Assembly: GCA_913058255.1 (NCBI GenBank)
Contig: CAJXQU010000008.1
Location: 32,479-96,478 of the forward strand
Direction: 5' to 3'
DNA length: 64,000 nt
Source: an uncultured Pseudomonadota bacterium
Lineage (GTDB): Bacteria; Pseudomonadota; Gammaproteobacteria; CAJXQU01
The notes below the pieces were generated by a model. The model did no database searches, was not told the origin of the DNA, and saw only the letters and a list, made by a program, of their open reading frames with translations. The translations under genes and the position numbers were made by a program. Positions 9,105 through 63,603 of this stretch are shown one piece after another. Within the stretch, counting starts at the first letter, position 1; each line of letters opens with the position of its first letter.

Positions 9105-11771
9105 TTATATCGTCCAAGGCGCGGGTGCTTCGGTATCCAGTTCATATTGTTTAATGGCCTTATCGACTTGCTTCATGTCGATTTCACCAAGGTCAGCTAA
9201 ACTCTTCAAGGCTGCAACCACAACATAATAACGATTCACTTCAAAGAAACGACGCAGGTTTTCTCGGGTATCCGAACGGCCAAAACCATCGGTACCAAGC
9301 ACCGTGCAGGGGCGATCAATATAGGGTCTAATCTGATCCGCAAATAGCCGCATATAATCGGTTGAGACGATCACGGGTCCATCCTGTTTTTCCAAACATT
9401 TTTCAACATGCGATTTCTTCGCAGGCTTGCTGGGATGTAGTCTGTTCCAACGCTCACATTCCTGACCATCACGCGCCAGTTCCGTGAAGCTTGGGCAACT
9501 CCAAAGATCGGATTCAACGCCCCAGTCTTTTTTGAGAAGCTCAGCCGCCGCGAGTACTTCACGGAAGATAACCCCGCTGCCCATCAATTGGACTCTAGGT
9601 TTCTTCGAGCGACCACCTTTCTTGAATAGATACATGCCTTTGAGAATATTTTTCTCAGAGCCTTTTAATAGCTCAGGGTGTGTATAGTTTTCATTCATTA
9701 CGGTGATGTAATAAAAAATATCTTCCTGCTCAACGTACATCCGTTGTAAACCATCTTGAATGATCACTGCCAGCTCACAAGCATATGTCGGATCATAAGA
9801 GATACAGTTTGGAACCATGGCTGACATCAGATGACTATGGCCATCTTCATGTTGTAAACCTTCCCCATTCAGTGTGGTGCGACCCGCCGTGCCACCGAGC
9901 AAGAAACCTCGAGTACGTTGATCAGCAGCTGCCCAGATCAAATCTGCAACCCGTTGGAAACCAAACATAGAATAGAAAATATAGAACGGGACCATGGGGA
10001 CGCCATGCGTAGAGTAAGATGTCCCTGCTGCAATCCAATCACACAGGCCACCAGCTTCGTTGATACCCTCTTGCAAAACCTGACCATTCTTATCTTCTTT
10101 ATAAAACATCAGTTGATCAGAATCTTGTGGAGTATAAAGTTGACCGACCTGTGACCAAATCCCGAGCTGGCGGAACATGCCTTCCATACCGAAGGTTCTC
10201 GATTCATCAGGCACAATCGGCACGATGCGATCACCAATACTTTTGTTCTTCGTTAAAATATTCAACAGTCGTACAAACGCCATAGTGGTCGATATTTCAC
10301 GACCTTCTGCCGTGGCTTCTAACAAGGGTTTGAAGTCACTTAATGGTGGCATTTCTAAAGCATCAGATTTTTCACGACGTACCGGTAAGTAACCTCCTAA
10401 AGATTCGCGATGTTTGGACATGTATTCCAATTCAACACTACCCTCTTCAAAAGTTAAGTAAGGGTAGTTTTCGATCTCGTCATCCTTAACAGGCAGATTG
10501 TAACGATTACGTAAATTACGTAGTGATTCAACGCTCATGTGTTTTTGTTGATGCGAAATATTTTGTGCTTGGCCTGAACGACCCATGCCATAACCCTTGA
10601 TCGTTTTCGCAAGGATAACGGTCGGCTGACCTTTGTGCTCATTCGCCGATTTAAATGCGGTAAAGATCTTCGCAGGATCGTGACCACCACGATTTAAGTC
10701 CCAAATATCTTGATCAGACCAGTCTGCCACCATGGCCGCTAACTCTGGACTGTTAAACAGATGTTCTCTTATATAAGCACCGTCTTTAGCTTTATACGTT
10801 TGGAACTCGCCATCCACGCAGTCCATCAAGCGGGTTAATAAGACCTGATCCTTATCACGAGCAAATAAAGCATCCCAATGTCGGCCCCAAACTAGCTTGA
10901 TCACATTCCAACCGGCTCCACGAAAAACGCTTTCCAACTCTTGAATAATCTTGCCATTACCACGCACAGGTCCATCGAGACGCTGTAGGTTACAGTTAAC
11001 GACGAAGATCAGGTTGTCGAGCTTTTCACGCCCCGCCATGTCGATCGCACCTAATGATTCTGGCTCATCTGTCTCACCATCACCTAAGAATGCCCAGACT
11101 TTGCGACCCGACGTGTCGGCAAAATTTCTATCTCTCAAATACAACATGAAACGCGCTTGGTAAATGGCCATGATCGGCCCAAGCCCCATCGAAACAGTTG
11201 GAAATTGCCAGAAGTCAGGCATCAACCAAGGATGCGGATAGGAACTTAAACCGCCACCATCGATCTCTTGGCGGAAGTTGTCCATTTGCGATTCACTCAA
11301 GCGGCCCAACATAAAGGCTCGTGCATAAATCCCTGGAGAAGAATGGCCTTGGATAAAGACCAAGTCTCCTTCGTGTGTCGCTGAAGGGGAGTTCCAAAAG
11401 TGGTTATAACCCACATCATATAAGGTGGCGGACGAGGCGAAACTGGATATATGGCCACCAACATTGGTGTCTACATTGGCTCGTAAAACCATCATCATGG
11501 CATTCCAGCGTACGTAGGAACGTATCCGCCGTTCGATATCATGATCCCCGGGGAATGCAGCTTGCATCTCAACAGGAATGGTATTCTGATAAGCCGTGTT
11601 GGCGCTGAAAGGAATGTCACTGCCCGATTGACGGGATATATCGAGGAGCTGATCAATTAGATAGTGGGCTCGTTCATGGCCGTCTTTACTAAGGACAGAT
11701 TTTAGGGACTCGACCCATTCTTCTGTCTCTACAGGATCGATATCATTGGGGTTAGGTATTGCTTCTCGCAT
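9105..11771 (-). CDS. aceE: Pyruvate dehydrogenase E1 component (homodimeric type)
   Basis: 888 aa, the length and layout of AceE. ThDP motif region GDGETDEPES...NCNLQRLDG. Lies upstream of aceF. Confidence 0.95.
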   Translation of the reverse strand: MREAIPNPNDIDPVETEEWVESLKSVLSKDGHERAHYLIDQLLDISRQSGSDIPFSANTAYQNTIPVEMQAAFPGDHDIERRIRSYVRWNAMMMVLRANVDTNVGGHISSFASSATLYDVGYNHFWNSPSATHEGDLVFIQGHSSPGIYARAFMLGRLSESQMDNFRQEIDGGGLSSYPHPWLMPDFWQFPTVSMGLGPIMAIYQARFMLYLRDRNFADTSGRKVWAFLGDGETDEPESLGAIDMAGREKLDNLIFVVNCNLQRLDGPVRGNGKIIQELESVFRGAGWNVIKLVWGRHWDALFARDKDQVLLTRLMDCVDGEFQTYKAKDGAYIREHLFNSPELAAMVADWSDQDIWDLNRGGHDPAKIFTAFKSANEHKGQPTVILAKTIKGYGMGRSGQAQNISHQQKHMSVESLRNLRNRYNLPVKDDEIENYPYLTFEEGSVELEYMSKHRESLGGYLPVRREKSDALEMPPLSDFKPLLEATAEGREISTTMAFVRLLNILTKNKSIGDRIVPIVPDESRTFGMEGMFRQLGIWSQVGQLYTPQDSDQLMFYKEDKNGQVLQEGINEAGGLCDWIAAGTSYSTHGVPMVPFYIFYSMFGFQRVADLIWAAADQRTRGFLLGGTAGRTTLNGEGLQHEDGHSHLMSAMVPNCISYDPTYACELAVIIQDGLQRMYVEQEDIFYYITVMNENYTHPELLKGSEKNILKGMYLFKKGGRSKKPRVQLMGSGVIFREVLAAAELLKKDWGVESDLWSCPSFTELARDGQECERWNRLHPSKPAKKSHVEKCLEKQDGPVIVSTDYMRLFADQIRPYIDRPCTVLGTDGFGRSDTRENLRRFFEVNRYYVVVAALKSLADLGEIDMKQVDKAIKQYELDTEAPAPWTI

Positions 11772-19569: not shown

Positions 19570-19598
19570 AGCTCTTTATTGAAATTTCAATAAATAAA

Positions 19599-19627
19599 CC
19601 CTCACATCAATGTATGTGAGGGTTTTC
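19599..19627 (+). terminator. Rho-independent terminator
   Basis: CCCTCACAT-caatgt-ATGTGAGGG followed by TTTT, 30 nt after the porin stop. Confidence 0.7.
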
Positions 19628-19665
19628 CTGATCTGCTCCTGCTAATCCTATATCCTATCCTGTTC

Positions 19666-20200
19666 TGACCAAGTCCAACCGGACACATCTCTAAACTTAT
19701 TTTCAAGCTCAACTGGCAAACAATCACCATTAGTAGCTGTATGCAGTCTTTTAAGATTGTAATATTTCATATTGGCGGCCACATCAAGCTTTCATTTCAC
19801 TTCGTGTCGGCTGGACAACCTTATATAACCAATCATGCTTAATACTGCCGAAAAAGCGCTCACCCCCCAACAAGCACCGACATAGCACATACTGGCTCGA
19901 ATACCATAAGCAGTTATTCATTTACGATATGGCTTATTGATACACTGTTCCCCTCTTTCACTATAAAAAACGAGTCCCTTCGGTGATTGTCTAAGGTACA
20001 AACCTTCATCATCGCTTTGCTAATTAAACCCGTCGTCATACTTTATCCACATACCAACCAACGATACGCTGAGAATATAAGTCCATAACAACGGCTAAAG
20101 ACAACCAGCCATCATTGGTTTTTAAATAACTCACATCATCTGCCCAGACTTGATTCGAGCGACCTTTCCCCATCATTAGTACCAGCGCATTGTTCAGATT
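19666..20200 (-). mobile_element. IS3-family element 'X', 3' part (OrfB pseudogene plus right terminal repeat)
   Basis: Minus-strand fragments NALVLMMGKGRSNQVWADDVSYLKTNDGWLSLAVVMDLYSQRIVGW (DDE N-region) and MKYYNLKRLHTATNGDCLPVELENKF (OrfB C-terminus). The terminal sequence TGACCAAGTCCAACCGGACAC at 19666-19686 matches TGGTCTACTACAACAGGACAC (reverse complement of 22691-22711) at 14 of 21 positions. Confidence 0.6.
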
Positions 20201-21219
20201 CATAACACTTTATGCTGCTCTTTTTGTAAATCCAACCCGTGGTATATAGCCGAGTAAACTGTGAGCTCTGACATTGTTGTAATACTCGCGCCATTGGCCG
20301 ATTTCAACCCTAGCTTCTTCCAATGTTCTAAACCAATGTTGATGTCAGACATTCATTTCTAAACTTTCCATTAAGACTTTCAACAAACGCGTTCTGTGTC
20401 GGCTTTCCTGGCTGAATAAACCCAAGTTTTACTTATCGTTCTTTGCTCCAAAAGAACATCGCTTTGCTGGTGTATTCTGCGCCGTTGTCACACGTGATCG
20501 TATGAGGTGATTGTCGTTGTTCACTAATCGGCTCAAGGAGTCGAGCGACTTGCAGTCCTGTGATCGAAACAAAAACTAGTTTCCCCATCATTTCTTTGGT
20601 ATAAACATCGACAATATTCAGCACACGAAAACGCCTGCTGTACTAAGCTGATCGGAGACAAGTCCATCCACCAGCGTTCATTATCAGACGTTGGCAGAGC
20701 CATCGTTTGTCTGGGACGTTGCAAGTTTCTTTCGCTTTTTTGCACGCACTTGAAGCCCTACATCGGTATAAAATCGACAAGCTCGTTTCTTGTTGATGAC
20801 TAAACCTTCAATAATCCGTGTAATATCAAGTAACCGTAATGTGAATAATTAACGACTAGGACTTTCAGGCACGCTCTGAGCACCTGTTCATCTTTACCTT
20901 TCACTTTGTAACGATAATCTCAGCTAACCAACAGGCCATGCGCTCACTTGATATGATAATGTTCTATCAAGTGATGCACGATCGGCTTTACCTTATTTTT
21001 GAAAGCGCATCCTTCATGCCTTCGACTTCCAATAACTTGTCAGGCAACAATCTTTTCAGTTTATTGTTCTCAGGCTCCAATTCACGCAGACGCTTAGCTT
21101 CGTTCGCTTCCAGCCCTGCATATTTACTACGCCCAGTTATAAAAAGTACCTATATAAATACCCTGTTCACGACAGATGTCCTCGACCTTTATCCCTGATT
21201 TATTTTGCTTGATCTTTAA
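20200..21219 (-). mobile_element. IS3-family (IS407/IS2-like) element 'A', degenerate, inserted in X
   Basis: Minus strand shows an OrfA trace GIKVEDICREQGIYIGTFYNWA..AERLRELEPENNKLKRLL. OrfB traces are PTSDNERWWMDL, RFRVLNIVDVYTKEMMGKL...ITCDNGAEYTSKAMFFW, FIQPGKPTQNAFVES.NGKFRNECL and WREYYNNVRAHSLLGY. Multiple stops and frameshifts. The 5' end is cut by element C. Confidence 0.65.
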
Positions 21220-22467
<1,248 letters not shown>

Positions 22468-22711
22468 CTACAAATGTCGTTCCTAACTGCTCTGACTCTA
22501 CTTTGGCTTTACCAGCTATAGAATAAGTTTATCCGCCATACCTCATGATTTAAATGCTTTTAAGGCGGTATAGCCTTGCCCTAATATTAAGGCGACAGCC
22601 TCTTCTTTAAATGACGTACTGTACTTTTTTGGTTCACTTTTGGCTCGTTATGACACCTCTTGCTTTGAAACCTATTATCTCAAATTAAAAGTGTCCTGTT
22701 GTAGTAGACCA
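22468..22711 (-). mobile_element. IS3-family element 'X', 5' part (left terminal repeat plus OrfA N-terminal fragment)
   Basis: The minus strand starts with TGGTCTACTACAACAGGACAC and then reads KKYSTSFKEEAVALILGQGYTALKAFKS*GMADKLIL*LVKPK, the IS3 OrfA HTH pattern, interrupted by stops. Confidence 0.5.
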
Positions 22712-23165
22712 GATCACGTACCTTGAGTGTACAAAAATAGAATTTTATCATCCATAGAACTAAAACGATGTTAGTATTTTTTGACCTACCGAGGCTCAAA
22801 ACTACCTGCTCGGTCATGTGAAGTCTTAAGTTCAAACTAGCCTTCTTCGATTTGTAAGCTCTTCCGGCTGGCGGGTGGTGCCGTTACAGTTATTCTTTTT
22901 ATAATCAGGTTATTCATGCTTGGAAAAAGCAAGGTGGCCTTCCCGTTCAGCGTTTAGTGCTGCTTCAACGGTGATCTTCTCAGTATCTGTCGAAGCACAC
23001 TCAGCTCTACTTCAAAGTTTATGTTTTTAGCCACAGTTTCTGCAATAGCTTGCAGCTCATCTACTACCTACTCTCTCCTTTATTCAAGGGTCATGATAGA
23101 CAGTTTCACAATTTTATTTACGGCCTCTACTAGCACTGCTTCGGGAGAAGCCAGTTTAACCTGCT
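22712..23165 (-). pseudogene. IS256-family transposase, N-terminal fragment
   Basis: Minus strand reads ...ITVEAALNAEREGHLAFSKHE.PDYKKNNCNGTT... and MDDKILFLYTQGT, matching the IS256-family pattern LEAEL..HLGYEKHE....GN.RNG...PRDR.G.FEP...FDDKILSLYARGM. Several stops. Truncated at 22712 by element X. Confidence 0.6.
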
Positions 23166-23464
23166 TAATTTCTTAAAAGCCTTATTTGATATAATCATAT
23201 TATGTGAAATTTTCACTCCACATAATATGATTTCAACATGATTCTACTTCCATACTTATAGTATTAAAATCTATATTATCTCTATGAATGTCATTCTGCC
23301 TACAATCTGCCTTATTTGCTTTAAGAAGATTTTTCATAAGATCTATACCAACATCTTAAGAAGAATATGCCATCATCGAGGTAAATAAGAATGACTTAAT
23401 CCAATTAATCAATGAGCATTTGAATGCCAATATTAACTTTTTTACTCAGCTTCAAATATAAAGC

Positions 23465-24160
23465 TCACGATTGAAAAGGTAATATTTTCAAACTTATAAT
23501 TACTAAAGATGATGAGTTAGTAATTCCTTTCTCTATAGGGTCGTCTGAAGATCGGTAAAATTTTGATTTAACGATAATCCTTTTATCATCAATTGTTTTG
23601 CTACAAACCTGATCTATATAAACAGGACCAATTGCCTTATGCTTTCCCTGATCTGCTTCTGTTTCGTCTATACATTCCCACTGCGAACTACCATAACGTT
23701 TTTTTATGTTAGCTGACAAAAGATAGGCTTGTCTTTTGCTAAACGGAGAAGCATTTGGATCTGTATAAGCTTGCAGCCCTTGTATCACTCCCTCGTTATC
23801 TATCAAAACAGATAAATTAACTGGGTGTCCAGAAATTTTAGTACCGCTAAAACGTTCCCCTACCTCTGACCACTGATTATCTGAATGGTCATATTTTAAC
23901 CAAACCTGATAGATATTATGAGCATCAATAGAACACTCTAAAAACTCGCTTAGACTCTTAAGTTTCTTAGGAACCTTAGCAGGGCCTCCACAAGTAAAGT
24001 CTTTATAACGTTTTGCTGGCAATTCACTAACATGCATACCCAAGGATATATCACGAAGCTCTTTTGTTCTCTCAACAACAACTGCATCAGTAATATCTTT
24101 AGCGTAACTTCCTATTGAGAATGATAGAAGAACTGAAAGAAGAGGAATAATTAATTTCAT
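23465..24160 (-). CDS. Secreted hypothetical protein (231 aa), last gene of the PQQ-dehydrogenase operon
   Basis: Signal peptide MKLIIPLLSVLLSFSIGSYA/KD and five Cys residues. No motif I recognise. The 13-nt gap to the upstream cytochrome gene suggests co-transcription. Confidence 0.6.
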   Translation of the reverse strand: MKLIIPLLSVLLSFSIGSYAKDITDAVVVERTKELRDISLGMHVSELPAKRYKDFTCGGPAKVPKKLKSLSEFLECSIDAHNIYQVWLKYDHSDNQWSEVGERFSGTKISGHPVNLSVLIDNEGVIQGLQAYTDPNASPFSKRQAYLLSANIKKRYGSSQWECIDETEADQGKHKAIGPVYIDQVCSKTIDDKRIIVKSKFYRSSDDPIEKGITNSSSLVIISLKILPFQS

Positions 24161-24173
24161 TTTACAAGTCTCC

Positions 24174-25001
24174 TCACTCTCTTAAACTGTCACATTGACG
24201 TGATTTTTCGCCCCAATAAGCAGTGCACTGCTCCAAGCTAGGTTCTCCAGATCCTTTAATAACATTCACTACATAGTCAACAACAGCATCTAACTGTCTC
24301 TCACTAAGTAGTTTTCTAGCCCTAGGCGGTTTATCTTCACCAAACTCTTCTCCTGTTGTTTCGTAACAACTTACATCATCACCTTTGTAAACACTTCGTC
24401 CATGGAAAGGCATACCACTTGAAGGTCTACCACAACGAACAACTAGTTTAATTAATTCTGCATTCAAGACAGTTGTTCGCAATGACAAGGCTGCACCACC
24501 ATAACCACCGCCACCATCTCCATGCCATTTATGACATCCGACACAATTCGCTTGTTTATAAACTTTTTTACCTGCTGAGGTGAGTGCAGATTCTGTCTTC
24601 TTTTTTTCAACAATAACTCTAGCAAGAACATCTATCTTAAAAGAGGAGTCAGCACCTGTTACATCAGTAATCACTATAGACTCGTCATTGAAGATAGAAG
24701 GCATCACCTCCATGCCATCCTTTAGATTTTTTGCAATGATCTCATCGCCTTGTTTTAGAGAAAATCTTATTTTACTTTTATCTTCTGATTTCACATCCCA
24801 AACAAGTCTTATAGTTTCTTTGGGGTAAGTTATTGTAAATTTTTCACTACTTAATTGAGTTGATTCATTAACATCAACACTGATGATAAGTTTGTTTTCA
24901 AATTCAGGATTATTATGTGCGTGAAGTAAGGAAGGTATTAGTAACAAGGATATCGTTATTAACCTTATTACTGAAAAAGTATTAACAGTTATCTGTGACA
25001 T
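24174..25001 (-). CDS. Periplasmic c-type cytochrome with about 130-aa N-terminal beta-rich extension
   Basis: 275 aa. Signal peptide, single heme motif CVGCH followed by GDGGGGYGGAALSLR and GRPSSGMPFH, plus additional conserved-looking Cys residues downstream. It occupies the position of the dedicated electron acceptor (XoxG/cytochrome cL-like) after the dehydrogenase. Confidence 0.75.
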   Translation of the reverse strand: MSQITVNTFSVIRLITISLLLIPSLLHAHNNPEFENKLIISVDVNESTQLSSEKFTITYPKETIRLVWDVKSEDKSKIRFSLKQGDEIIAKNLKDGMEVMPSIFNDESIVITDVTGADSSFKIDVLARVIVEKKKTESALTSAGKKVYKQANCVGCHKWHGDGGGGYGGAALSLRTTVLNAELIKLVVRCGRPSSGMPFHGRSVYKGDDVSCYETTGEEFGEDKPPRARKLLSERQLDAVVDYVVNVIKGSGEPSLEQCTAYWGEKSRQCDSLRE

Positions 25002-27068: not shown

Positions 27069-27086
27069 TGCAATTAATACGCCAAA
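27069..27086 (-). promoter_or_regulatory. Sigma-54 (-24/-12) promoter of the PQQ-dehydrogenase operon
   Basis: The minus strand reads TTTGGCGTATTAATTGCA. This is TGGCGT-A-TTAA-TTGCA with exact GG-N10-GC spacing, about 100 nt upstream of the ATG at 26958. Confidence 0.6.
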
Positions 27087-27611: not shown

Positions 27612-29375
27612 CTAACAGCAATTACAGTATCTTTGATGCTTAGTTGTTTTTCCAATACCAGGGTTAAAAGTATTTGTAGGATCTAACTTTTGGTAAAAAT
27701 CTTTAAGCTCATTGGCAGCTTCATAAATATGCCCAACATTATGCTCGGCAGGATATTTAGCACCCTTATCATCAAACAGCTCCAACAATTGTTGTTTAAC
27801 TTCTTGCACACTCTCACCTTTTTTAACGAGATAATCCTGATGAAAAACATGACAGAAAAAATGTCCGTAATAAATAGGGCTAAATATCTTTGCCCGCAAG
27901 CTTTCGGGCAACTCTTCAACCCAATTAGTTTCATTCCTTTTTAGAGCAACATCTAGCGCCAGTATATCTTCAACTTTATCTTCATGCATTTGGTAATAAC
28001 GGATCGCTGCGCCAGCAACAGCAAAACGGTGCAACATAGCTTTTTCTTCTTCTTCTTTAGTACAGACAATATAGTGTCCAGAATTATTTTGGATGTCCTC
28101 GTTTGCATAAAACTTAGTTAAATACTGTGTTAATTCTTCGATACCATCATCACTCATTTTTATGATTAAGTGGTGAGCATACAATTTTTCCATCTCTAAT
28201 ATTCGTTGAGGCAAATGCTCTGGGAAAAGCGAACTAAGCCATTGCATGACTTTATCTGGAAAATCTTTAGGCATAAATGGCAGACGATTAAGTAATGTAT
28301 TTAAACGACCCCTAATCGCAAATAACTGCGGCATTCTGCGTGTACCCATAATGTTAATCGCTAAAAAAGTATCTTTACCATAAACTCGGGCTAAATTAAA
28401 AGCATCCCGATGAATGTACTCGCCTAAAACGGGCAAGTTTTTAAAGTTCTTAAGAACATGTCGTCTTATTTGGTTTAATTGGTTGGAGTCTTTTGTCCCT
28501 ATATAAAAAGTTTTACTTTTTTCAACACTTTTGAAAGTATCCAATCTAACAGCAAATACCGCCAACTTCCCTGCACAACCACTGCTCTCGAATAAACGCC
28601 TCGGATCTGCATTAAAACGTGCAGGAGAATCAGCATCAACATCTTTAACTCGTTTTTTATATTCAATGTCAGAAGCCATTGCATTATCATTCCAAACAAC
28701 ATCTGATAATGAAAAATTCTCATCCTGTAAATTGCTTAATATCTCTTCAGGCGTGTCTCCTAAAGAAATCCCCAAGTGATTAATTAGCTCTAAGTGGCCA
28801 TGTTCATTAACTTGAGCATATAAAGCTAACTCAGTATATGCAGGACCACGTTGAATAAGTGCACCCCCTGAATTATTAGCAACCCCTCCTATAACCGAGG
28901 CACCAATACACGACGAACCGATGACAGAATGAGGCTCACGTTGTAATGGTTTTAAAGCATTCTCGATTTGATATAACGTTGTGCCTGGAAAACTAATAAG
29001 TTGACGACCTTTCTTTTTTTCCTCAATTGTTTCTGTTTCCGCACCCAGTAATATCATCTGATCCATTTTACGAGTATTGATAACTATGACAGGTCGCTCA
29101 TAATCATAACCACTAGGGGTGGATCCTTCCGTTAGCCCTGTGTTAGCGGCTTGCATGATAATGATCGTTCGAGCTTCAACACAAACTTGTAATACACGCC
29201 AAAATTTCAGCAAATCATCAGGAAAAACAACCGCCGCAGCATCACCCTCTCCAGATCTAAACCCTGTTCTATAATGCTTTGTTTGTTCTAATGAAATAAG
29301 GATATTCCTTTTTCCAACAATATCCTCGAGAGTTAAAATAAATCCTGTATTTTCCATTTTTAAATTTTCAACCAA
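27612..29375 (-). CDS. dld: Quinone-dependent D-lactate dehydrogenase (FAD, membrane-associated)
   Basis: 587 aa. Collinear with E. coli Dld: YRTGFRSGEGDAAAVVFP, MQAANTGLTEGSTP, REPHSVIGSSCIGASVIGGVANNSGGALIQRGPAYTE. Confidence 0.9.
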   Translation of the reverse strand: MVENLKMENTGFILTLEDIVGKRNILISLEQTKHYRTGFRSGEGDAAAVVFPDDLLKFWRVLQVCVEARTIIIMQAANTGLTEGSTPSGYDYERPVIVINTRKMDQMILLGAETETIEEKKKGRQLISFPGTTLYQIENALKPLQREPHSVIGSSCIGASVIGGVANNSGGALIQRGPAYTELALYAQVNEHGHLELINHLGISLGDTPEEILSNLQDENFSLSDVVWNDNAMASDIEYKKRVKDVDADSPARFNADPRRLFESSGCAGKLAVFAVRLDTFKSVEKSKTFYIGTKDSNQLNQIRRHVLKNFKNLPVLGEYIHRDAFNLARVYGKDTFLAINIMGTRRMPQLFAIRGRLNTLLNRLPFMPKDFPDKVMQWLSSLFPEHLPQRILEMEKLYAHHLIIKMSDDGIEELTQYLTKFYANEDIQNNSGHYIVCTKEEEEKAMLHRFAVAGAAIRYYQMHEDKVEDILALDVALKRNETNWVEELPESLRAKIFSPIYYGHFFCHVFHQDYLVKKGESVQEVKQQLLELFDDKGAKYPAEHNVGHIYEAANELKDFYQKLDPTNTFNPGIGKTTKHQRYCNCC

Positions 29376-29866: not shown

Positions 29867-29883
29867 TTGGCATATTATTTGCT
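29867..29883 (+). promoter_or_regulatory. Sigma-54 (-24/-12) promoter of the aldehyde dehydrogenase / SoxYZ-like operon
   Basis: TTGGCATATTATTTGCT is TGGCAT-A-TTAT-TTGCT with exact GG-N10-GC spacing, about 80 nt upstream of the ATG at 29962 (RBS AGGAG at about 29947). It is nearly identical to the element at 27069-27086. Confidence 0.65.
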
Positions 29884-31470: not shown

Positions 31471-31497
31471 GATCATTACTGACATTTCGTAACGTGT

Positions 31498-31530
31498 ATT
31501 GCGGCTACTGTTTATTAAAGTAGCCGCAAT
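31498..31530 (+). terminator. Hairpin after the aldehyde dehydrogenase gene (12-bp perfect stem, no clear T-tract)
   Basis: ATTGCGGCTACT-gtttattaa-AGTAGCCGCAAT. A second short hairpin, GTAGAG-tagctag-CTCTAC, follows. It may attenuate rather than terminate. Confidence 0.45.
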
Positions 31531-31656
31531 ATAAGTAGAGTAGCTAGCTCTACTACTAAGTTAAAATTTACTCCTAATGGTTCGACTCAGCATAAAGCTC
31601 TTAATTCATTTCCAATTATTTTGGACATCTTCTTACTTAACTTATAGAGTGTATAA

Positions 31657-32526
31657 ATGAACTATTTAAAATTATTTCTCACATTTTACTTCTCAGTATT
31701 CACTCTAGTCTGCCATGGTGAAATTGCTTCAGATACTTCACAACAGAGTCCTTTGGAAGAGAACTCTTTAGAAGATTATTGGGAGAATAATATAAAGAAT
31801 ATTTATTTTTCTGGAAAAGATATTATTGTTGATTCAAATCAGGACATAATAAAGTTAGAAGCTCCATATAGAGCAGAAGATCCTGCCATAGTACCAATTT
31901 CAATCCAAACCATGGTAGCCACCAATGAAAGTTTTGACATCATTAAAATTCATGTTTTTATTGACAAAAACCCTTCTCCATTAGTCGGTGTTTTTAAATT
32001 TTCAGAACTCAAAAGTAAAGCAGACCTTTCAATGAGAGTTAGGGTGAATGAGTTTACCTATATTCGTGCTATCGCAGAAACAAGTGATGGGAAGTTCTAT
32101 ATGACGAAGAAATTTGTAAAGGCAAGTGGAGGTTGTTCCGCCCCTCCCCCTCCTTCTGCCGCCAATGCTAAGTTATTAGGTAAAATGCGGACTAGAATTA
32201 TGGGAAGACTTGCATTGTCAAAACCAAATTTAGTTCAATTCAAAATCAAACATCCAAACTATTCAGGTTTAGAAATGGTCGCCCCAGGAAGTGAAAAAAC
32301 AAAACAAAATTTCATAAAGAATATAAAAGTTAGCCTAAACGATAAAACTGTCTTAGATGCAGATTTGACATTCTCTATAAGCACAGACCCAAGTTTTAGA
32401 TTTTATATAACTCCTGAAAAAGAAGGAACTCTAGAAATTGAGGCTACGGACACAGCTAACAATATCTTCACTCATAGCCATGTTGTTGATCATAATAATG
32501 TTTCTATAGCCATTCCATTAAATTAA
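31657..32526 (+). CDS. Periplasmic SoxY/SoxZ-fusion-like thiol carrier (quinoprotein-dehydrogenase-associated type)
   Basis: 289 aa. Signal peptide. The N-terminal half ends in KASGGCSAPPPP (Cys160, nt 32134-32136), resembling the SoxY GGC swinging-arm motif but placed internally. It is followed by a Pro linker and a SoxZ-like beta-sandwich half. Paralog of 61565-62374. Confidence 0.65.
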   Translation: MNYLKLFLTFYFSVFTLVCHGEIASDTSQQSPLEENSLEDYWENNIKNIYFSGKDIIVDSNQDIIKLEAPYRAEDPAIVPISIQTMVATNESFDIIKIHVFIDKNPSPLVGVFKFSELKSKADLSMRVRVNEFTYIRAIAETSDGKFYMTKKFVKASGGCSAPPPPSAANAKLLGKMRTRIMGRLALSKPNLVQFKIKHPNYSGLEMVAPGSEKTKQNFIKNIKVSLNDKTVLDADLTFSISTDPSFRFYITPEKEGTLEIEATDTANNIFTHSHVVDHNNVSIAIPLN

Positions 32527-33367: not shown

Positions 33368-35305
33368 ATGACATATACGACAAAAAAAAATCTACATGTT
33401 GATAAAATCCATAGTACGGTTTCATGCATGGTTGATGCATCAAACATAGAGTCCATGGTTGAGCGTTCATGGCACCGATGCATTGACGACTATGGACTTT
33501 CACCATCTAGTACCCCCTTACCTCATGTACTTGAAAAAATTGAACTCCGTGAATGTGAAGAACATTTTTCTAAGGCAAGAGAAATCTCTCAAAACAGTGT
33601 AAATAAGCTTTATGAGTTTATCGCAGATATAGGCTACACCATATTACTCACTGATAATAATGGCATAACACTCGACTGCCGTTATAACCTTGATCACGAA
33701 AACACATTAAAAAAACTTGGCCTATATCACGGCACAAATTGGTCTGAAAATATCTCAGGAACAAATGGTATCGGAACTTGTTTGGTTGAAAAATCTCCTG
33801 TTTTAATTCGTACTGGAGAACATTTCTTTCATGAGATGTTCAATGCTACATGTACAGTTTCCCCAATTTTTGACAGTAAAGGAAAAATAATGGCGGCTCT
33901 TAATGCCACAACCCTTCTGCCAGAAACAGCCAATCAAAATAAACTTATTTCACGTCTTGTTGAACAACATGCGATGCAAATCGAAATTTTGAATTTCATC
34001 CAAGATTTCAGCGATCATTGGATATTAAAATTTTCTACCGGTAATGATCTTACGAATATTATAAAAACAGGTATTCTGGCTGTTAATCAAGATGGCGTTA
34101 TCGTGGCCGGCAATAGAAACTCCTACAACCTTCTCTATAAAAAGAACAGAGCCGACTTAAATAATAAGTATGTCCATGATATATTTAAATCGAACTTTTC
34201 AGCAATGATTGATAACCACAATAAAAACATACCACTAAGGCATCAACTTACTACATTAGAGCACCAAGATACCTTTTTCTTTGAGCTTAGAGCACCTTCT
34301 CTTTCTCAAAAAAATAGCTCCTCACCTTCAAAGCAAAAAAGCAATTCAAAAGTAAAACAACCTCATTGTAAAGAACACCCGCATTTATCTGATTTAGCTG
34401 GAAATGATATTCACATGCAAATCATAGGAGAGAAGATAAAGAAAGTTATTAACTTAGATTTAAATATTTTACTTATTGGTGAGACAGGATCTGGCAAAGA
34501 AGCACTCGCTAAAGCAATACATCATGCAAGTGAGCGGCAAGATCAACCCTTCATTGCTATTAATTGTGCAGCAATACCTGAATCATTAATAGAAAGTGAA
34601 TTGTTTGGTTATTCTAGCGGTACTTTTACAGGTGGTCTCAAAAATGGTATGAAGGGCAAGGTTCTTCAAGCTAATGGTGGAACCCTATTTTTGGATGAAA
34701 TTGGCGATATGCCATTACACCTACAAACACGTCTCTTACGTGTACTCTCTGAAATGGAAGTCATCCCACTTGGTGAAACAACGCCAACTTATTTAGATAT
34801 ACAGCTTATTTCAGCAACCAACAAAAGTATCACCGAAATGGTTAAAAATAATACTTTCCGTAAAGATCTATACTATCGACTTAACGGTATCACCTTAGAG
34901 ATACCATCATTAAGAAATCGAACAGACAAACGAGAGTTAATTGTAAATATATTTAATGAATATTCATCATTAAAATCGACCTTATTATCGGAAAGCTCGC
35001 TAGACATATTAGAACATTATCAATGGCCTGGAAATATTAGACAATTAATTAACGTTGCAAAGTACTCTGCTGCAATGTGCACATCAGGTGAAATACAAGA
35101 TGAGCATCTTCCTAAAGAAATACGCTCTAACAAATCAAAAAATATTAAAGAAAACTTACAACATTCAGAGTATGAAATTCTTATAAACTGTCTGAAAATC
35201 AATAAGTGGAATATTACAAAAGTATCCAAACAACTGGGGATCTGCAGAGCGACTGTGTATAGAAAAATTAATAAATATAAAATAATTTTTCCAAATGATG
35301 AATAG
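33368..35305 (+). CDS. acoR: Sigma-54-dependent transcriptional activator, AcoR-like (GAF-type sensor plus AAA+ plus Fis HTH)
   Basis: 645 aa. N-terminal ERSWHRCIDDYGLSP as in AcoR. Walker A GETGSGKE, sigma-54 contact loop ESELFGYSSGTFTGG (GAFTGA variant), DEIGDMP and C-terminal HTH ITKVSKQLGICRATVYRKINKY. The true start is probably an internal Met (aa 21 or 30). Confidence 0.88.
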   Translation: MTYTTKKNLHVDKIHSTVSCMVDASNIESMVERSWHRCIDDYGLSPSSTPLPHVLEKIELRECEEHFSKAREISQNSVNKLYEFIADIGYTILLTDNNGITLDCRYNLDHENTLKKLGLYHGTNWSENISGTNGIGTCLVEKSPVLIRTGEHFFHEMFNATCTVSPIFDSKGKIMAALNATTLLPETANQNKLISRLVEQHAMQIEILNFIQDFSDHWILKFSTGNDLTNIIKTGILAVNQDGVIVAGNRNSYNLLYKKNRADLNNKYVHDIFKSNFSAMIDNHNKNIPLRHQLTTLEHQDTFFFELRAPSLSQKNSSSPSKQKSNSKVKQPHCKEHPHLSDLAGNDIHMQIIGEKIKKVINLDLNILLIGETGSGKEALAKAIHHASERQDQPFIAINCAAIPESLIESELFGYSSGTFTGGLKNGMKGKVLQANGGTLFLDEIGDMPLHLQTRLLRVLSEMEVIPLGETTPTYLDIQLISATNKSITEMVKNNTFRKDLYYRLNGITLEIPSLRNRTDKRELIVNIFNEYSSLKSTLLSESSLDILEHYQWPGNIRQLINVAKYSAAMCTSGEIQDEHLPKEIRSNKSKNIKENLQHSEYEILINCLKINKWNITKVSKQLGICRATVYRKINKYKIIFPNDE

Positions 35306-38885: not shown

Positions 38886-40931
38886 TTGGAAAAAACTATG
38901 AGCTTTTTTAATCAGAAAAAAAGGAAATCTAGTGCAGTATGCACCATTAGTACAAATTCTAGTCTATTACAGACAGATCTTGGTAATGTAAGTATCAATC
39001 CATCTTTCGTAGTGGCATTCACTTCACCCCATGTAGATTTGGATACCGTTGCAAACCAAATTAAATCTCGATTTACAAATATTCCCATGTTGATATGTAC
39101 AACAGCCGGTGAACTTTGTTCAGAAGATAAAAATTCATCTATGTACAAAACAACACCACTCGGTTGGGATAATATTGTTTTGCAATGTTTTGATGAATCG
39201 TTAATAGCAAAAGCGAGCATTGTTTCAGTACCTCTTGATTGTGAAGACTTACGTAGTGGAGACAATATCAAGCCCCTAGAATCACGTATCAGTGGATTAT
39301 CAAAAAGAATAAAACAAATTAATCCCGGGCTAGAAATCGATCATAAAGATACACTCGCTTATATATTAATGGATGGTCTATCTAGTTCAGAGTCATTCTT
39401 TATGGAAGCTCTCTATGACTCAGGAGCACTACCTTGCTTGTTTGTTGGAGGCTCTTCTGGTGGGTTATTCGATTTTCAATTTAGCTATATCCATGATGGA
39501 AATAAACGTTTAGAAAACCATGCTGTTATCGCATTCTTAAAAATGGCAAAAGATACGCGGTTTGGTATTTTCAAAACCCAAAATTTCATCCCTACAGACA
39601 CACATTTCAAAATTTCAAGTGCCTCTGTAGAAAAACGACAAATAAATCAAGTCATAGACAAACATGGGAACGTAACTTCATTTATAGGAGCGTTATGTGA
39701 ATATTTTAAATGTGCTCCAAATGACTTGGATCAAAGTTTAGCAGATTACTCATTTGCAATTTGGGTAAAAGATCAACTTTATGTACGTTCAATTGCAAGT
39801 ATCGATATAAAATCTGATCTCATTAATTTTTCTTGTGATATCGGCTCAGGTGAAGAACTTGTTTTAGTTAAACGTACCGGTTTAGTCGAAACTACACAAA
39901 ATGATTTCCGTAAATTCTCACTAGGAAAACCTAGCGAGCCCATTGCAGGTATTCTTAACGATTGTGTATTAAGACGGTTATGCAATGATTCAGAACTACC
40001 TAAAATGGATGGTATCTTTGGTGATACCCCCTTGATTGGCTTCTCAACCTTTGGAGAAATTCTCGGTTTAAACCTTAACCAAACTCTCAGTGCTATCTTT
40101 TTCTACAAGGTAGAAAAAGGTCAACAATTTAGTGATGAATATGTCGATAACTTTGTAGCACATTATGGTGAGTTCAAAGCGTTCTTTTTGCGACGACAAA
40201 CTGCAAAACTAACGGGCCTATCAAATGTCATTATTAAACAAATTGGAGATTATCGCTCAGGAATTTATCAAAATAAACTAGAAGTCAGTTACCAAGATCC
40301 AAGCATGCTCAAGCTTGTTGAGGATTTAAATCAACTCGGAGATGTCCTACAAGAGTCTCAAAATCTACGTGACTCAACTTCACAACACTTACAGTCAGCA
40401 TCTAGTGACCTATATGCATCGATGGAACAGCTAACAGATCAGTTATCTTCGCAAGGCAGCGTAATCAACGATGCAGGTGAAACCGTAAGCTACTTAGCTG
40501 ACCAAGCACAGAAAACAGCGACAGGTGCTTCAACGCTTGCCCAGACAGGTAACCAGATCCAAAACGTTGTTGAGGTTATTCAACAAATAGCGGATCAAAC
40601 TAACCTGCTGGCACTAAATGCGGCTATCGAAGCTGCGCGCGCAGGTGAAGCAGGTCGAGGCTTCTCTGTAGTTGCTGATGAAGTTAGAACTCTCGCAGAA
40701 AAATCACGTGATAGCGCAGGAACAATTGGTTCTGAAATATCATCACTCGCTGGTGAGATTATTCAATTCTCAAAACAAATCGAGCAACAATCGTCTGAAG
40801 TTTCAAATTTAAGTTCAATCCTTGATAACATCACTGATTATATGAATAAAACTGCAGATACTGCAAAAAATACAACACAGATTGCAGATCAACTAAGTAA
40901 TATTGTTGAAGAAAGTAAAAAAACTGGTTAG
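38886..40931 (+). CDS. Soluble methyl-accepting chemotaxis protein with FIST-type N-terminal sensor
   Basis: 681 aa with no hydrophobic TM segment. The N-terminal ~400 aa resemble FIST_N/FIST_C (..[18 protein letters not shown].., ..GFSTFGEI..). C-terminal MCP signalling hairpin [41 protein letters not shown]. Start is TTG 38886 (RBS GGGAGG) or ATG 38898. Confidence 0.85.
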
Positions 40932-41496: not shown

Positions 41497-41922
41497 TCAA
41501 GCAAAATTCTCATCAAATGATATTCCGTTTTTCAATACGCCATAAATAATATGTACCAGTTTTCTCGTCGCTACATCCACAATTGTCATCTTGGATTTTC
41601 CCACTGCCGTTAATCGTTTCTTCAGTTCAATGATTAACGGGTTGTATCGTAGTCCAACCAATGCAGGCATAAAAAAGGCTTTTCTCAATGAGGAACGTCT
41701 CATTTTTGACATCGTCGCACGGAATCGTAATGAGGTGCCAGTGGCTTCTATACAAACATGAGCGGTCGTTGCATCATGATGTTCCAACCACTCAAACAGA
41801 GCGGTAAATCCTTTTTTTGGATTGTTGATAAACTTTTTATGCTTGAGTTTTGTGTCTTTCAGTAAGGCTACGTCATATTTTAGTTTGGAGATGTCGATCC
41901 CCAGTGTGAGTTGGTCAATCAT
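41497..41922 (-). pseudogene. IS110-family transposase with large internal deletion
   Basis: 141 aa. The N-terminal ~62 aa (LGIDISKLKYDVAL...HVCIEATGT, DEDD/RuvC-like) are fused directly to the C-terminal ~60 aa (LRKAFFMPALVGLRYNP...GKSKMTIVDVATRKLVHIIYGVLK). About 200 central residues of a normal ~340-aa IS110 transposase are missing. Confidence 0.75.
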
Positions 41923-61564: not shown

Positions 61565-62374
61565 TTAATTATTTACCGTAAAGACCTTCTCAAACTTCCG
61601 ACCTTTAGAATCTTCCATTTCAGCTTTTAACTCCCCTCCTTGCCCGGGGTTAAAGAAAAATCTAAAACTTGGATCTTGACTAATAGAAATATCAGTTTCA
61701 GCAGTCATAATGTGTTTTTCATTAAAACTAATCATAACTTTGGTAACGTAATCCGCAGGGATAATCGCTCGCGTTCTTTGATCAAGCTGTAGTCCATTCA
61801 CATTCGGATGCCTGATACGAAGCTGCCCTAACAGCCCATCGTTATTTTCAGAATCTACGGATCGGAAATTCATCTCACCAATATGTTCCTTCGCCGCCTG
61901 AAGCTCTAAAAAAGGTGGCGGCAAAGAGCACCCTCCACTCGCGCGAACAAATTTAGCATCCATAAACAGCTCACCATTATTCAGCTCTGCAACAGCACGT
62001 ACATTGGTGTATTGATCAATCCTAATCCGCATAGCAAGATCAGCACGTCCCATGGCAGGGGTAAGATGAAATGTGCCTGCTAAAGGCACCGGATTATTAT
62101 CAGCGAATAAATACAATGTCTTAATATAACGTTCAGCCGTTTGTGGTATTTGGGCATTAATACTAACAGGTACAACACTGGCATCTTCCGCTCGATACGG
62201 AACCGTTAGTTTGACGATGGACTCACTTATCGTAATAAGTCTCTCTTGAAAGTGTTTCTGACGGATGAAAGTGGTCCAGACATCTAGTTCAGATCGCTCC
62301 TCAGCTATACTTAAAAGTGGAAAAGTACTTGATACTGCCAGTAAACCCAGCAAATAGATCCGTAACCACTTCAT
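61565..62374 (-). CDS. Periplasmic SoxY/SoxZ-fusion-like thiol carrier, paralog 2
   Basis: 269 aa. Signal peptide. PYRAEDASVVPVSI, RASGGCSLPPP (Cys149) and C-terminal DPSFRFFFNP all align with the paralog at 31657-32526. Confidence 0.65.
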   Translation of the reverse strand: MKWLRIYLLGLLAVSSTFPLLSIAEERSELDVWTTFIRQKHFQERLITISESIVKLTVPYRAEDASVVPVSINAQIPQTAERYIKTLYLFADNNPVPLAGTFHLTPAMGRADLAMRIRIDQYTNVRAVAELNNGELFMDAKFVRASGGCSLPPPFLELQAAKEHIGEMNFRSVDSENNDGLLGQLRIRHPNVNGLQLDQRTRAIIPADYVTKVMISFNEKHIMTAETDISISQDPSFRFFFNPGQGGELKAEMEDSKGRKFEKVFTVNN

Positions 62375-62598: not shown

Positions 62599-63603
62599 AT
62601 GAACACTCACTCTGATGGCCCATTGATTGATTCGTTTGGACGAACCGTCTCCTATGTCAGATTATCTGTAACAGATCGCTGTGACTTCCGCTGCGTCTAT
62701 TGTATGAGCGAAGATATGACCTTTGTCCCCCGGGCACAGGTACTAACCCTCGAAGAATTAGGTCAAATCGCACGCGCCTTTGCAGAGCTTCAAATCAAAA
62801 AAATCCGTATTACCGGTGGTGAGCCTCTGGTCAAAAATAATGTCCTGAAACTCTTCGACGAGATTGGTGCTATGCCAGGCATTAATGAGCTCACTCTCAC
62901 AACAAATGGTTCACAATTGACTCGCATGGCAGCAGATCTAAAAGCTTCCGGAGTTAGTCGCATCAATATCAGCCTCGACACACTCAAAGCTGATAAATTT
63001 AAAGAACTCACTAGAACGGGAGATATTAGCAAAGTACTTGCCGGTATTGATGCAGCGATCAAGGCCAAGTTTGAAAAAATTAAGATCAATGCTGTTATCC
63101 TCAAAAATAGGAATCACGACGAAGTTACTGATTTAGTCAACTTTGCTATCGAGCGCGAACTGGATATCACCTTCATCGAGGAGATGCCTCTTGGCAAAGT
63201 CTCTGATAGAAGTCGTGAAGAAGCGTATTATTCCAGTGATCGTATTAAAGAAGATCTTGCTCAGTCCTTTGAACTTATTGAGACGACAGAATCAACTGGT
63301 GGGCCTGCGCGCTACATCAAAATTCCAAACACAAAAACTAAAGTAGGCTTCATTTCGCCCCACAGCCATAACTTCTGCTCAACCTGTAATAGAGTCCGTG
63401 TCACTGCTGAAGGCTTACTTTTACTCTGCTTAGGACAAGAACACTCTGTCGACTTGAAAAGAGTAATACGGGCAAATCCTGGTGACATAGAAAAGTTGAA
63501 AAAAACGATACGTGATGCCATGAGTATCAAGCCAGAAGGTCATGATTTTGATATTACTGCGAAGCCCATTATATTCAGACACATGAATAGCACTGGTGGA
63601 TAA
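62599..63603 (+). CDS. moaA: GTP 3',8-cyclase (molybdenum cofactor biosynthesis protein A)
   Basis: 334 aa. Radical-SAM CDFRCVYC, GGEPL, a second cluster CSTCNRVRVTAEG and a C-terminal GG. Confidence 0.93.
   Translation: MNTHSDGPLIDSFGRTVSYVRLSVTDRCDFRCVYCMSEDMTFVPRAQVLTLEELGQIARAFAELQIKKIRITGGEPLVKNNVLKLFDEIGAMPGINELTLTTNGSQLTRMAADLKASGVSRINISLDTLKADKFKELTRTGDISKVLAGIDAAIKAKFEKIKINAVILKNRNHDEVTDLVNFAIERELDITFIEEMPLGKVSDRSREEAYYSSDRIKEDLAQSFELIETTESTGGPARYIKIPNTKTKVGFISPHSHNFCSTCNRVRVTAEGLLLLCLGQEHSVDLKRVIRANPGDIEKLKKTIRDAMSIKPEGHDFDITAKPIIFRHMNSTGG

Follow-up and report, generated by a model that had tools for sequence, protein, structure and literature searches.

The SoxYZ-like carrier gene of an uncultured gammaproteobacterium (assembly GCA_913058255.1, contig CAJXQU010000008.1, positions 32,479 to 96,478; this whole stretch of 64,000 nucleotides, from a metagenomic scaffold, is called the window) belongs to a sigma-54-controlled alcohol-oxidation module, which also includes a pyrroloquinoline quinone (PQQ)-dependent alcohol dehydrogenase (PQQ-ADH), a cytochrome c, a 231-aa protein, and a cytoplasmic aldehyde dehydrogenase. 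The gene product, a single chain with a SoxY-like and a SoxZ-like half, adds a divergent protein to a known family of uncharacterized function, and its context here is unusually minimal. With a probability of roughly 50%, it is a carrier with a sulfur or thiol-redox cargo on its invariant cysteine (Cys160), accessory to the periplasmic PQQ enzyme.

Lanthanide-dependent PQQ dehydrogenases are central to the turnover of methanol and other alcohols in soils and oceans, and the conserved accessory genes around them, including the SoxYZ-like carrier, are functionally uncharacterized. The carrier family (TIGR04557) already has a name in annotation pipelines and appears in several papers, and no experiment in the literature addresses its function. 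In a 2026 review of the Pseudomonas ped cluster, the types of PP_2677 (carrier family), PP_2678 (SoxH-like metallo-beta-lactamase, MBL), and PP_2666 (rhodanese) are described as conserved with lanthanide PQQ-ADHs and as co-transcribed near xoxFGJ in M. extorquens; the hypotheses put forward are disulfide formation, cofactor stabilization, or the shielding of PQQ from sulfur nucleophiles (PMC12997753). The locus of the window is stripped down to a carrier, an enzyme, a cytochrome, and a small unknown protein and lacks MBL and rhodanese, which reduces the set of components that the carrier could require at minimum. Its value is that of a cleaner test case, together with a lead from paralogues beside sulfite dehydrogenases, and not that of a new kind of system.

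The Carrier Protein and Its Invariant Cysteine

In the HMM search, TIGR04557 (NCBIfam fuse_rel_SoxYZ) matched the 289-aa protein with 226.9 bits against a cutoff of 140 and over profile positions 1–226 of 226, which confirms the assignment to the SoxYZ-like carriers made in the initial annotation. The architecture described there, that is, a signal peptide, a SoxY half ending at Cys160, a linker, and a SoxZ half, agrees with the open reading frame (ORF), the Pfam domains, and the n/h/c layout of the N-terminus (table 1). The protein scores below the curated cutoffs of true SoxY (TIGR04488, 77.1 vs. 125 bits) and true SoxZ (TIGR04490, 53.1 vs. 76 bits). Its nearest database relatives show 57–60% identity, 60% being the maximum, and the main clade of the family ~40–49%.

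The N-terminus (MNYLKLFLTFYFSVFTLVCHG/EIA) is typical of a Sec signal peptide, with residues 3–21 modeled as a helix, and an equivalent hydrophobic stretch begins every homologue in a diverse alignment of 30 sequences. On this basis the protein looks like one exported to the periplasm. A lipoprotein reading of the cysteine within the signal peptide (TLVC) was ruled out, as there is no lipobox and the residue varies among homologues.

An AlphaFold2 model built from the alignment of 30 homologues (mean predicted local distance difference test score, pLDDT, 82.9; predicted template modeling score, pTM, 0.79) consists of two beta-sandwich halves joined by a low-confidence linker. The SoxY/SoxZ fold expected from the initial annotation was recovered by Foldseek, with SoxY (2NNC/4UWQ; TM 0.81) and SoxZ (2OXH_A/2OXG_C/1V8H; TM 0.82) as the best matches in the PDB. 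In the linker, residues 161–170 have a mean pLDDT of 54 versus 79–96 in the neighboring blocks, and no regular strand is formed between strands E147–155 and E177–182. In this model, Cys160 is placed on an inter-domain loop that is predicted to be mobile.

The carrier motif KASGGCSAPPPP is present, and the SoxY half ends with GGC(160)SAPPPP, the cysteine being internal to the chain. The A-x-G-x-C-S-A-P motif, with Cys160 in it, shows no variation across 120/120 database homologues, all 30 sequences of the diverse alignment, and the 83 genes (83/83) from species-representative genomes; the conservation of this residue among homologues, on which the initial annotation depended, is therefore complete in these sets. 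Sequence alignment pairs Cys160 with the carrier cysteines of the Thermus (4UWQ_B) and Chlorobium (2NNC) SoxY proteins. By these alignments, Cys160 is the sole family-invariant cysteine and corresponds to the residue that carries sulfur in SoxY.

The carrier shares with the SoxYZ of Paracoccus pantotrophus (2OX5/2OXG) and Thermus (4UWQ) the two immunoglobulin-like folds, the carrier cysteine after the last SoxY strand, and a DKNP loop motif. On the contrary, SoxYZ is formed by two subunits with a free C-terminal GGCGG arm, whereas the window protein is one chain with an internal G-G-C-S-A-P-P loop. The SoxYZ of thiosulfate oxidation is, moreover, encoded with soxXA, soxB, and soxCD, none of which was found among the scanned ORFs of the window (Pfam and NCBIfam scans of most ORFs of at least 110 aa outside the nuo operon).

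The Alcohol-Oxidation Module and Its Probable Rearrangement

In the phylogenetic tree, the window carrier forms a separate small clade with the carriers of loci L002–L004 and L009. The four closest loci (L002, L003, L004/L005, and L009) all have the carrier gene as the last gene of a PQQ-ADH operon, with the order PQQ-ADH, 275-aa cytochrome c, homologue of the 231-aa protein, GFA and/or AmiS/UreI, and SoxYZ-like gene. In these relatives, the aldehyde dehydrogenase gene is divergent to the operon and several kb away, and the operon is surrounded by glycolate-oxidase-like, LutABC, and lactate-permease genes. The GFA-family gene (PF04828, without a signal peptide) is located just 5′ of the carrier gene in three of the four, and in L004/L005 its stop overlaps the start codon of the carrier. 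A gene of the AmiS/UreI family of small-solute channels is also found 5′ of the carrier gene in three relatives. The window has neither gene, and a tblastn search for remnants of them around the carrier gene gave nothing below E = 0.8.

A near-identical sigma-54 site, TGGTATATTAATTGC[AT], precedes PQQ-ADH in all four relatives, that is, in five of five loci with the window. A sigma-54 site is also placed 5′ of the aldehyde dehydrogenase orthologue in three relatives, or four of the five loci of the clade. An orthologous sigma-54 activator is located beside the module in L003 and L004/L005, and the MimR_N activator of the window is presumed to be the regulator of the alcohol-oxidation module.

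As a separate observation, the PQQ-ADH sigma-54 element is nearly identical in the five loci though the proteins are just 40–60% identical.

The order in the window is unk231(−), cytc(−), PQQ-ADH(−) ... AldDH(+), SoxYZ(+), which is the expected product of a single inversion of the block AldDH...PQQ-ADH-cytc-unk231. A distance of 4.7 kb, which includes a D-lactate dehydrogenase gene, separates the carrier gene from the PQQ-ADH, and the two are encoded on opposite strands. At one end of the inverted block, the 3′ end of the PQQ-ADH operon adjoins a region of IS3-type debris (19.6–22.5 kb); the ~3.9 kb from 19570 to 23460 contain no ORFs >93 aa and consist of broken-up transposase genes of the IS3 type (pieces of rve and HTH_Tnp_1, in both orientations). 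We infer that in the ancestor of the clade the carrier gene was last in the PQQ-ADH operon and that the inversion put it behind the aldehyde dehydrogenase gene. According to this comparison of gene orders, the adjacency of carrier and aldehyde dehydrogenase is derived, and the conserved linkage is with the PQQ-ADH operon and its regulon. Even in its new place, the carrier gene has a promoter of the same sigma-54 regulon upstream of it.

The placement of the carrier gene right after the aldehyde dehydrogenase, as first described, holds for the window, since 187 bp separate the end of the aldehyde dehydrogenase ORF (31470) from the start of the carrier gene on the same strand, but as an order specific to the window and fitting the inversion it does not extend to the clade. 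The idea that the carrier is a decaying relic of the rearrangement was rejected, because the ORF is intact and every family-invariant residue is retained.

The spacer between the two genes contains two strong RNA hairpins (z = −4.92; 0/200 shuffles fold equally well), so that co-transcription of the aldehyde dehydrogenase and the carrier is not assured. A U-tract is absent after the hairpins. No sigma-54 promoter was detected by pattern search directly 5′ of the carrier gene, either in the window or in the relatives. A sigma-70-like match at 31622–31650 was discarded as the carrier promoter, as it would leave a leader of just 6 nt and is no better than chance.

Transcription termination, RNA processing, and a remnant of the rearrangement are possible explanations for the hairpins themselves. 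Copies of their stem sequence are absent from the rest of the window, and a repeated element of the repetitive extragenic palindrome or miniature inverted-repeat transposable element type was ruled out on account of this single copy.

Compared with the canonical TIGR04557 carriers, the window protein shares the SoxY–SoxZ fusion, the internal conserved cysteine, the predicted export, and a nearby PQQ alcohol/methanol dehydrogenase of the lanthanide type (PMC12997753). Canonical clusters encode three further proteins, namely a zinc metallohydrolase of the SoxH-like type (TIGR04558/9), a CXXCW protein resembling rhodanese, and a binding protein of the MoxJ type. All three are absent from the window and from the surrounding 10 kb in its four closest relatives, and the partners here are the 275-aa cytochrome c and the 231-aa Cys-rich protein, which has no Pfam match. 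In detail, no ORF of at least 90 aa in the window contains HxHxDH and the family scans gave no Lactamase_B match, in keeping with the absence of MBL-type partners reported from the first inspection of the window. Likewise, there is no CXXCW ORF in the window and no rhodanese match in the family scans, and neither MBL, rhodanese, nor SoxC is encoded within 10 kb of the carrier gene in the four closest relatives.

Genomic Contexts of the Family

The wider family was surveyed in species-representative genomes using the best 80 of 248 loci, in which ORFs were clustered and recurrent families annotated. The survey comprises 83 SoxYZ-like genes, and context counts are given over the 53 with at least 5 kb on each side (fully flanked); since it is dominated by a few gammaproteobacterial lineages rich in metagenome-assembled genomes (MAGs), the counts represent non-independent events.

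The proposed link with PQQ dehydrogenases across genomes was recovered, as such an enzyme is encoded within 5 kb of the SoxYZ-like gene in 39 of the 53 fully flanked relatives. Two or more unrelated gene orders show this association in the present data, and the literature adds others. Most PQQ-linked copies form a large clade in which the gene is divergent from an operon of PQQ dehydrogenase, pseudoazurin, and MoxJ_2 (TIGR03871), accompanied by a 269-aa unknown protein. The PQQ enzymes near SoxYZ-like genes carry the D-x-D lanthanide signature in 51 of 52 cases and a vicinal Cys-Cys in 50 of 52. In lucinid symbionts, SoxYZ fusion clades are located beside PQQ-ADH/soxH (SoxYZ-S2) and beside xoxF and formate dehydrogenase (fdh) genes (SoxYZ-S4), and they are likewise divergent SoxY–SoxZ fusions (PMC11237559). 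The large clade of this survey, being beside PQQ dehydrogenase and formate dehydrogenase genes, fits the description of SoxYZ-S4 (PMC11237559). The window clade differs from both S2 and S4 in its operon layout and in its lactate- and glycolate-oxidation neighbors.

A second context is formed by SoxC-type sulfite dehydrogenases (TIGR04555, 587 bits vs. a cutoff of 420), which together with a cytochrome c follow the SoxYZ-like gene in 6/53 fully flanked cases and in 12/83 overall. The arrangement is ArsR/BigR-like regulator, SoxYZ-like gene, SoxC-type gene, and cytochrome c, with a TlpA-like thiol-disulfide oxidoreductase nearby. These copies are nested among the PQQ-linked ones in the tree. In one MAG, the carriers of the SoxC side (L040) and of the PQQ side (L048) are 89% identical, and a second MAG contains such a pair with 71% identity. 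Near-identical paralogues beside either a PQQ dehydrogenase or a SoxC-type sulfite dehydrogenase provide a testable lead, namely a sulfur adduct on the arm. An MBL partner (TIGR04559, 404 bits) was found only beside the Methylomonas MAG copies L065 and L074.

The remaining contexts are those of copies without either enzyme. Neither a PQQ dehydrogenase nor SoxC is near 8 of the 53 fully flanked genes, and one further relative has an orphan copy among unrelated genes. The window itself encodes a second TIGR04557 member between moaA and a BON-OmpA / DUF4332 / tpiA / secG / nuo block, with no quinoprotein near, and its 82%-identical relative in L093 keeps the same neighborhood (moaA, SoxYZ-like, BON-OmpA, DUF4332, tpiA, secG, nuo). 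The statement that no sox genes are in view is, because of this paralogue, true only for soxXAB and soxCD.

These copies bear on the possibility that the protein is a stand-alone periplasmic carrier of sulfur oxidation or detoxification, whose proximity to PQQ-ADH comes from a shared periplasmic location, horizontal transfer, or chance. Orphans in housekeeping contexts, among them the second window copy, are what it would predict, as are the SoxC-type neighbors of some copies and the fully flanked genes with neither enzyme nearby; on the same side stands the judgment of Dahl's group that the H. denitrificans cluster, which is not thiosulfate-induced either, is irrelevant to oxidative sulfur metabolism (PMC11582611). 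Nevertheless, the explanation is an improbable one, as the link with PQQ dehydrogenases recurs as a same-strand operon here, as a divergent arrangement in the large clade, and in the ped, xox, and Thiodiazotropha clusters (PMC12997753; PMC11237559), and the window gene is found behind a promoter of the same sigma-54 regulon even after the inversion.

Genes of the moaA, moaC, and fdhD types occur beside SoxYZ-like genes in three settings (window 62599–63603 (+); L065 9733–10212; L093 4170–6009). This proximity of genes for molybdenum-cofactor and formate-dehydrogenase maturation could be shared synteny or a functional hint.

A Proposed Sulfur or Thiol-Redox Cargo on Cys160

A carrier with a sulfur or thiol-redox cargo is ranked first for four reasons. 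The arm of the homologous SoxYZ performs sulfur chemistry; near-identical paralogues adjoin SoxC-type sulfite dehydrogenases; all partners reported for the family (SoxH, rhodanese, YeeE-like, TlpA/thioredoxin-like, and ArsR/BigR-like proteins) belong to sulfur or thiol trafficking; and a generic periplasmic activity, not bound to a carbon substrate, is favored by the orphan copies. Among these partners, SoxH-like MBLs, rhodaneses, and YeeE-like proteins are known from clusters described elsewhere (PMC12997753, PMC11582611, PMC11237559).

In such a mechanism, the Cys160 arm would carry a covalent sulfur species, for instance a persulfide, an S-sulfonate, or a mixed disulfide, as in SoxYZ. The carrier would act in the periplasm as an accessory to the PQQ enzyme and not as a carrier of the carbon substrate, and it would catch sulfur nucleophiles or redox equivalents or pass them on. 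In this way sulfite, sulfide, or thiosulfate may be kept off the lanthanide-activated carbonyl of PQQ and off the strained vicinal Cys-Cys disulfide, or the damage that they cause may be repaired.

Several points weigh against this assignment. Cargo on the carrier is unobserved, both here and in the literature, and the P. putida homologue PP_2677 gave minimal phenotypes in randomly barcoded transposon sequencing (RB-TnSeq) on alcohols without lanthanides (PMC12997753). As the window clade is without MBL, rhodanese, or SoxC within 10 kb, the sulfur inference is borrowed from other clades. At the locus itself, the spacer hairpins upstream of the carrier gene may terminate transcription, and a separate promoter for the gene was not identified. 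In addition, the context counts are drawn from a few gammaproteobacterial MAG lineages and are not phylogenetically independent, and many family members are orphans, so the function may be a general periplasmic one and not specific to the alcohol dehydrogenase.

Proposed Aldehyde Adducts on Cys160

The position behind the aldehyde dehydrogenase had inspired the proposal that Cys160 traps the aldehyde released by PQQ-ADH as a thiohemiacetal and so buffers the aldehyde or shuttles it. The proposal can be extended by a second oxidation, in which the PQQ enzyme would convert the bound thiohemiacetal into a thioester for cleavage by an MBL-type hydrolase. The adjacency on which this was founded is a derived feature and not a conserved one, although the carrier gene does follow the aldehyde dehydrogenase in the window. 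The GFA-family genes just 5′ of the carrier in three of the four relatives are of a family associated with thiol-formaldehyde chemistry, and an AmiS/UreI small-solute channel gene is upstream in three relatives; yet GFA and the aldehyde dehydrogenase both have no signal peptide, which makes them cytoplasmic whereas the carrier is predicted to be exported. Glyoxalase II thioesterases are distantly related to the MBL partners known from other loci (the TIGR04559 type gives a weak GloB match), but no hydrolase or thioesterase partner was found in the window or near the carrier in its closest relatives. Furthermore, a stoichiometric protein thiol would be unable to buffer a catabolic flux of aldehyde, paralogues occur beside sulfite dehydrogenases (71–89% identical to their PQQ-side counterparts) and as orphans in housekeeping contexts, and the xoxF5 clusters of Rhodobacter contain gfa and soxH with no SoxYZ-like carrier (PMC5934484). 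The aldehyde-trap hypothesis is left without specific support, though not refuted, and we regard it as quite improbable.

The comparison with glutathione- and mycothiol-dependent aldehyde handling (Gfa; GSH-FDH, the glutathione-dependent formaldehyde dehydrogenase; S-formylglutathione hydrolase) is limited to the analogy of a thiol adding to an aldehyde and to the GFA genes upstream in relatives. In that system the thiol is a small molecule of the cytoplasm, and separate dehydrogenase and thioesterase steps exist for it; for a protein-bound thiol, no such step is encoded here. A full protein-tethered periplasmic analogue of glutathione-dependent aldehyde oxidation on Cys160 is very improbable. 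If it were true, PQQ-ADH would make a thioester on the carrier, SoxH-like MBLs, where present, would release the acid, and toxic aldehydes would never leave the enzyme–carrier pair. In an equally novel variant, the arm would bind PQQ covalently for cofactor delivery.

The PQQ-ADH and Its Partner Proteins

The best PDB match of the window PQQ-ADH is the lanthanide-dependent PedH (6ZCV/6ZCW). The enzyme has D-Y-D where PedH has D-F-D, whereas the calcium enzymes have D-F-S (ExaA), D-F-T (ADH-IIB, 1KV9), or D-Y-T (membrane ADH). Because of this signature and of PedH being the closest structure, it is predicted to be a lanthanide enzyme. A vicinal Cys-Cys is also present (TACCGVNNRG).

These features of the enzyme are at the center of the main rival to the sulfur-cargo function, a pure role in maturation or maintenance with no sulfur cargo. 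According to it, Cys160 would form transient mixed disulfides that make or repair the strained Cys-Cys disulfide of PQQ-ADH, or the arm would hand PQQ, as a reversible C5 thiol adduct, to the apo-enzyme. The association of the family is specific to PQQ dehydrogenases with the Cys-Cys and the D-x-D signature, but the calcium-type PQQ-ADHs share the Cys-Cys and mature without a carrier, and P. aeruginosa has none (PMC12997753). Disulfide formation or cofactor stabilization is among the roles proposed in the review (PMC12997753), and the operon is shared with other accessory proteins, namely the cytochrome and the 231-aa Cys-rich protein here and the MoxJ_2 binding protein elsewhere. The near-identical paralogues of the SoxC side and the orphan copies, on the other hand, have no PQQ enzyme to mature. 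TlpA-like and DsbC genes are found in some neighborhoods, DsbC being 5–6 kb off and in one syntenic lineage only. A maturation role of this kind is unlikely, though the most credible of the alternatives to a sulfur or thiol-redox cargo.

The 275-aa cytochrome c is the presumed electron acceptor of PQQ-ADH.

The 231-aa protein is predicted to be exported, with a signal peptide, and four of its cysteines are invariant in the alignment. An HMMER scan of 1.84 billion representatives with its domain retrieved 287 clusters. Relatives of 480–514 aa consist of the 231-aa-type domain followed by pentapeptide repeats, and the long relatives are encoded directly after PQQ dehydrogenase genes in both loci inspected (2/2; L089 6001–7542 and L090 6001–7443). 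As judged from these sequences, the protein is the stand-alone form of a Pfam-less domain which elsewhere is fused to pentapeptide repeats. PedD of the Pseudomonas ped clusters is a conserved, uncharacterized pentapeptide-repeat protein (PMC12997753), and the 231-aa domain may be the N-terminal domain of PedD-like proteins. Its structure prediction, from a two-sequence alignment, reached a pLDDT of 44, too poor for a fold search. A relationship with the 269-aa unknown protein of the large-clade operons was ruled out (pairwise BLAST E 0.012; hhalign probability 2%).

As for the cytochrome, ~130 N-terminal residues without a family match precede its haem domain. It is also much larger than the cytochrome c550 type named as the PQQ-ADH partner in Pseudomonas clusters.

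Other Features of the Window

The coordinates of the features are collected in table 1. The Rfam scan of the window returned one tRNA only.

Table 1. Features of the carrier locus and of related loci (positions in the window unless a locus is named)
Feature	Position	Strand	Evidence or remark
275-aa periplasmic c-type cytochrome (CVGCH)	24174..25001	−	Pfam Cytochrom_C / Cytochrome_CBB3, residues 141–246
231-aa protein, predicted exported, four invariant Cys	23465..24160	−	No Pfam or NCBIfam match
PQQ-ADH, lanthanide type (predicted), 583 aa	25207..26958	−	TIGR03075, 548 bits
Sigma-54 type −24/−12 promoter TGGCGTATTAATTGCA, 5′ of PQQ-ADH	27069..27084	−	Pattern match
D-lactate dehydrogenase gene	27612..29375	−	Between PQQ-ADH and aldehyde dehydrogenase
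Sigma-54 type −24/−12 promoter TGGCATATTATTTGCT, 5′ of aldehyde dehydrogenase	29868..29883	+	Pattern match
NAD(P)-type aldehyde dehydrogenase, 502 aa	29962..31470	+	NCBIfam aldehyde dehydrogenase families, e.g., ExaC-like, 366 bits
Two adjacent strong RNA hairpins (15-bp and 8-bp stems), aldehyde dehydrogenase/carrier spacer	31495..31554	+	Minimum free energy −39.2 kcal/mol
SoxYZ-like carrier gene	31657..32526	+	ATG-start ORF, 289 aa, family TIGR04557
Predicted Sec signal peptide, residues 1–21, MNYLKLFLTFYFSVFTLVCHG	31657..31719	+	Read off the sequence; hydrophobic N-terminus in all homologues
SoxY-like domain, residues 60–160, carrier cysteine at its end	31834..32136	+	Pfam PF13501, E 3e-32
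Cys160 codon TGT, invariant motif A-x-G-x-C-S-A-P	32134..32136	+	Sequence; conserved in all homologue sets
Pro/Ala-rich flexible linker, residues 161–176, between both domains	32137..32184	+	Low pLDDT in the AlphaFold2 model
SoxZ-like domain, residues 191–274	32227..32478	+	Pfam PF08770, E 1e-19
Sigma-54-dependent activator (MimR_N / AAA+ / HTH_8)	33368..35305	+	Adjoins the carrier gene downstream
Second TIGR04557 member, 269 aa, GGCSLPPP	61565..62374	−	252.9 bits; 33% identical to the first carrier
GFA and/or AmiS/UreI genes of the closest relatives	L002 8789–9989; L004/L005 9651–10004; L003 9467–9976; L009 8797–9986
SoxC-linked SoxYZ-like loci	L021, L028, L040, L044, L046, L059, L063, L070, L073, L076, L077, L080 (around position 10000 or at the match)

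Downstream of the carrier gene, at a distance of 6 kb, a FIST/NosP-like sensor domain is fused to a methyl-accepting chemotaxis signaling domain (38886–40931, +); the ped cluster of Pseudomonas is also flanked by a NosP-type gene (PMC12997753). A truncated IS110-family transposase fragment of 141 aa (41497–41922, −) is a further sign of mobile-element activity in the region.

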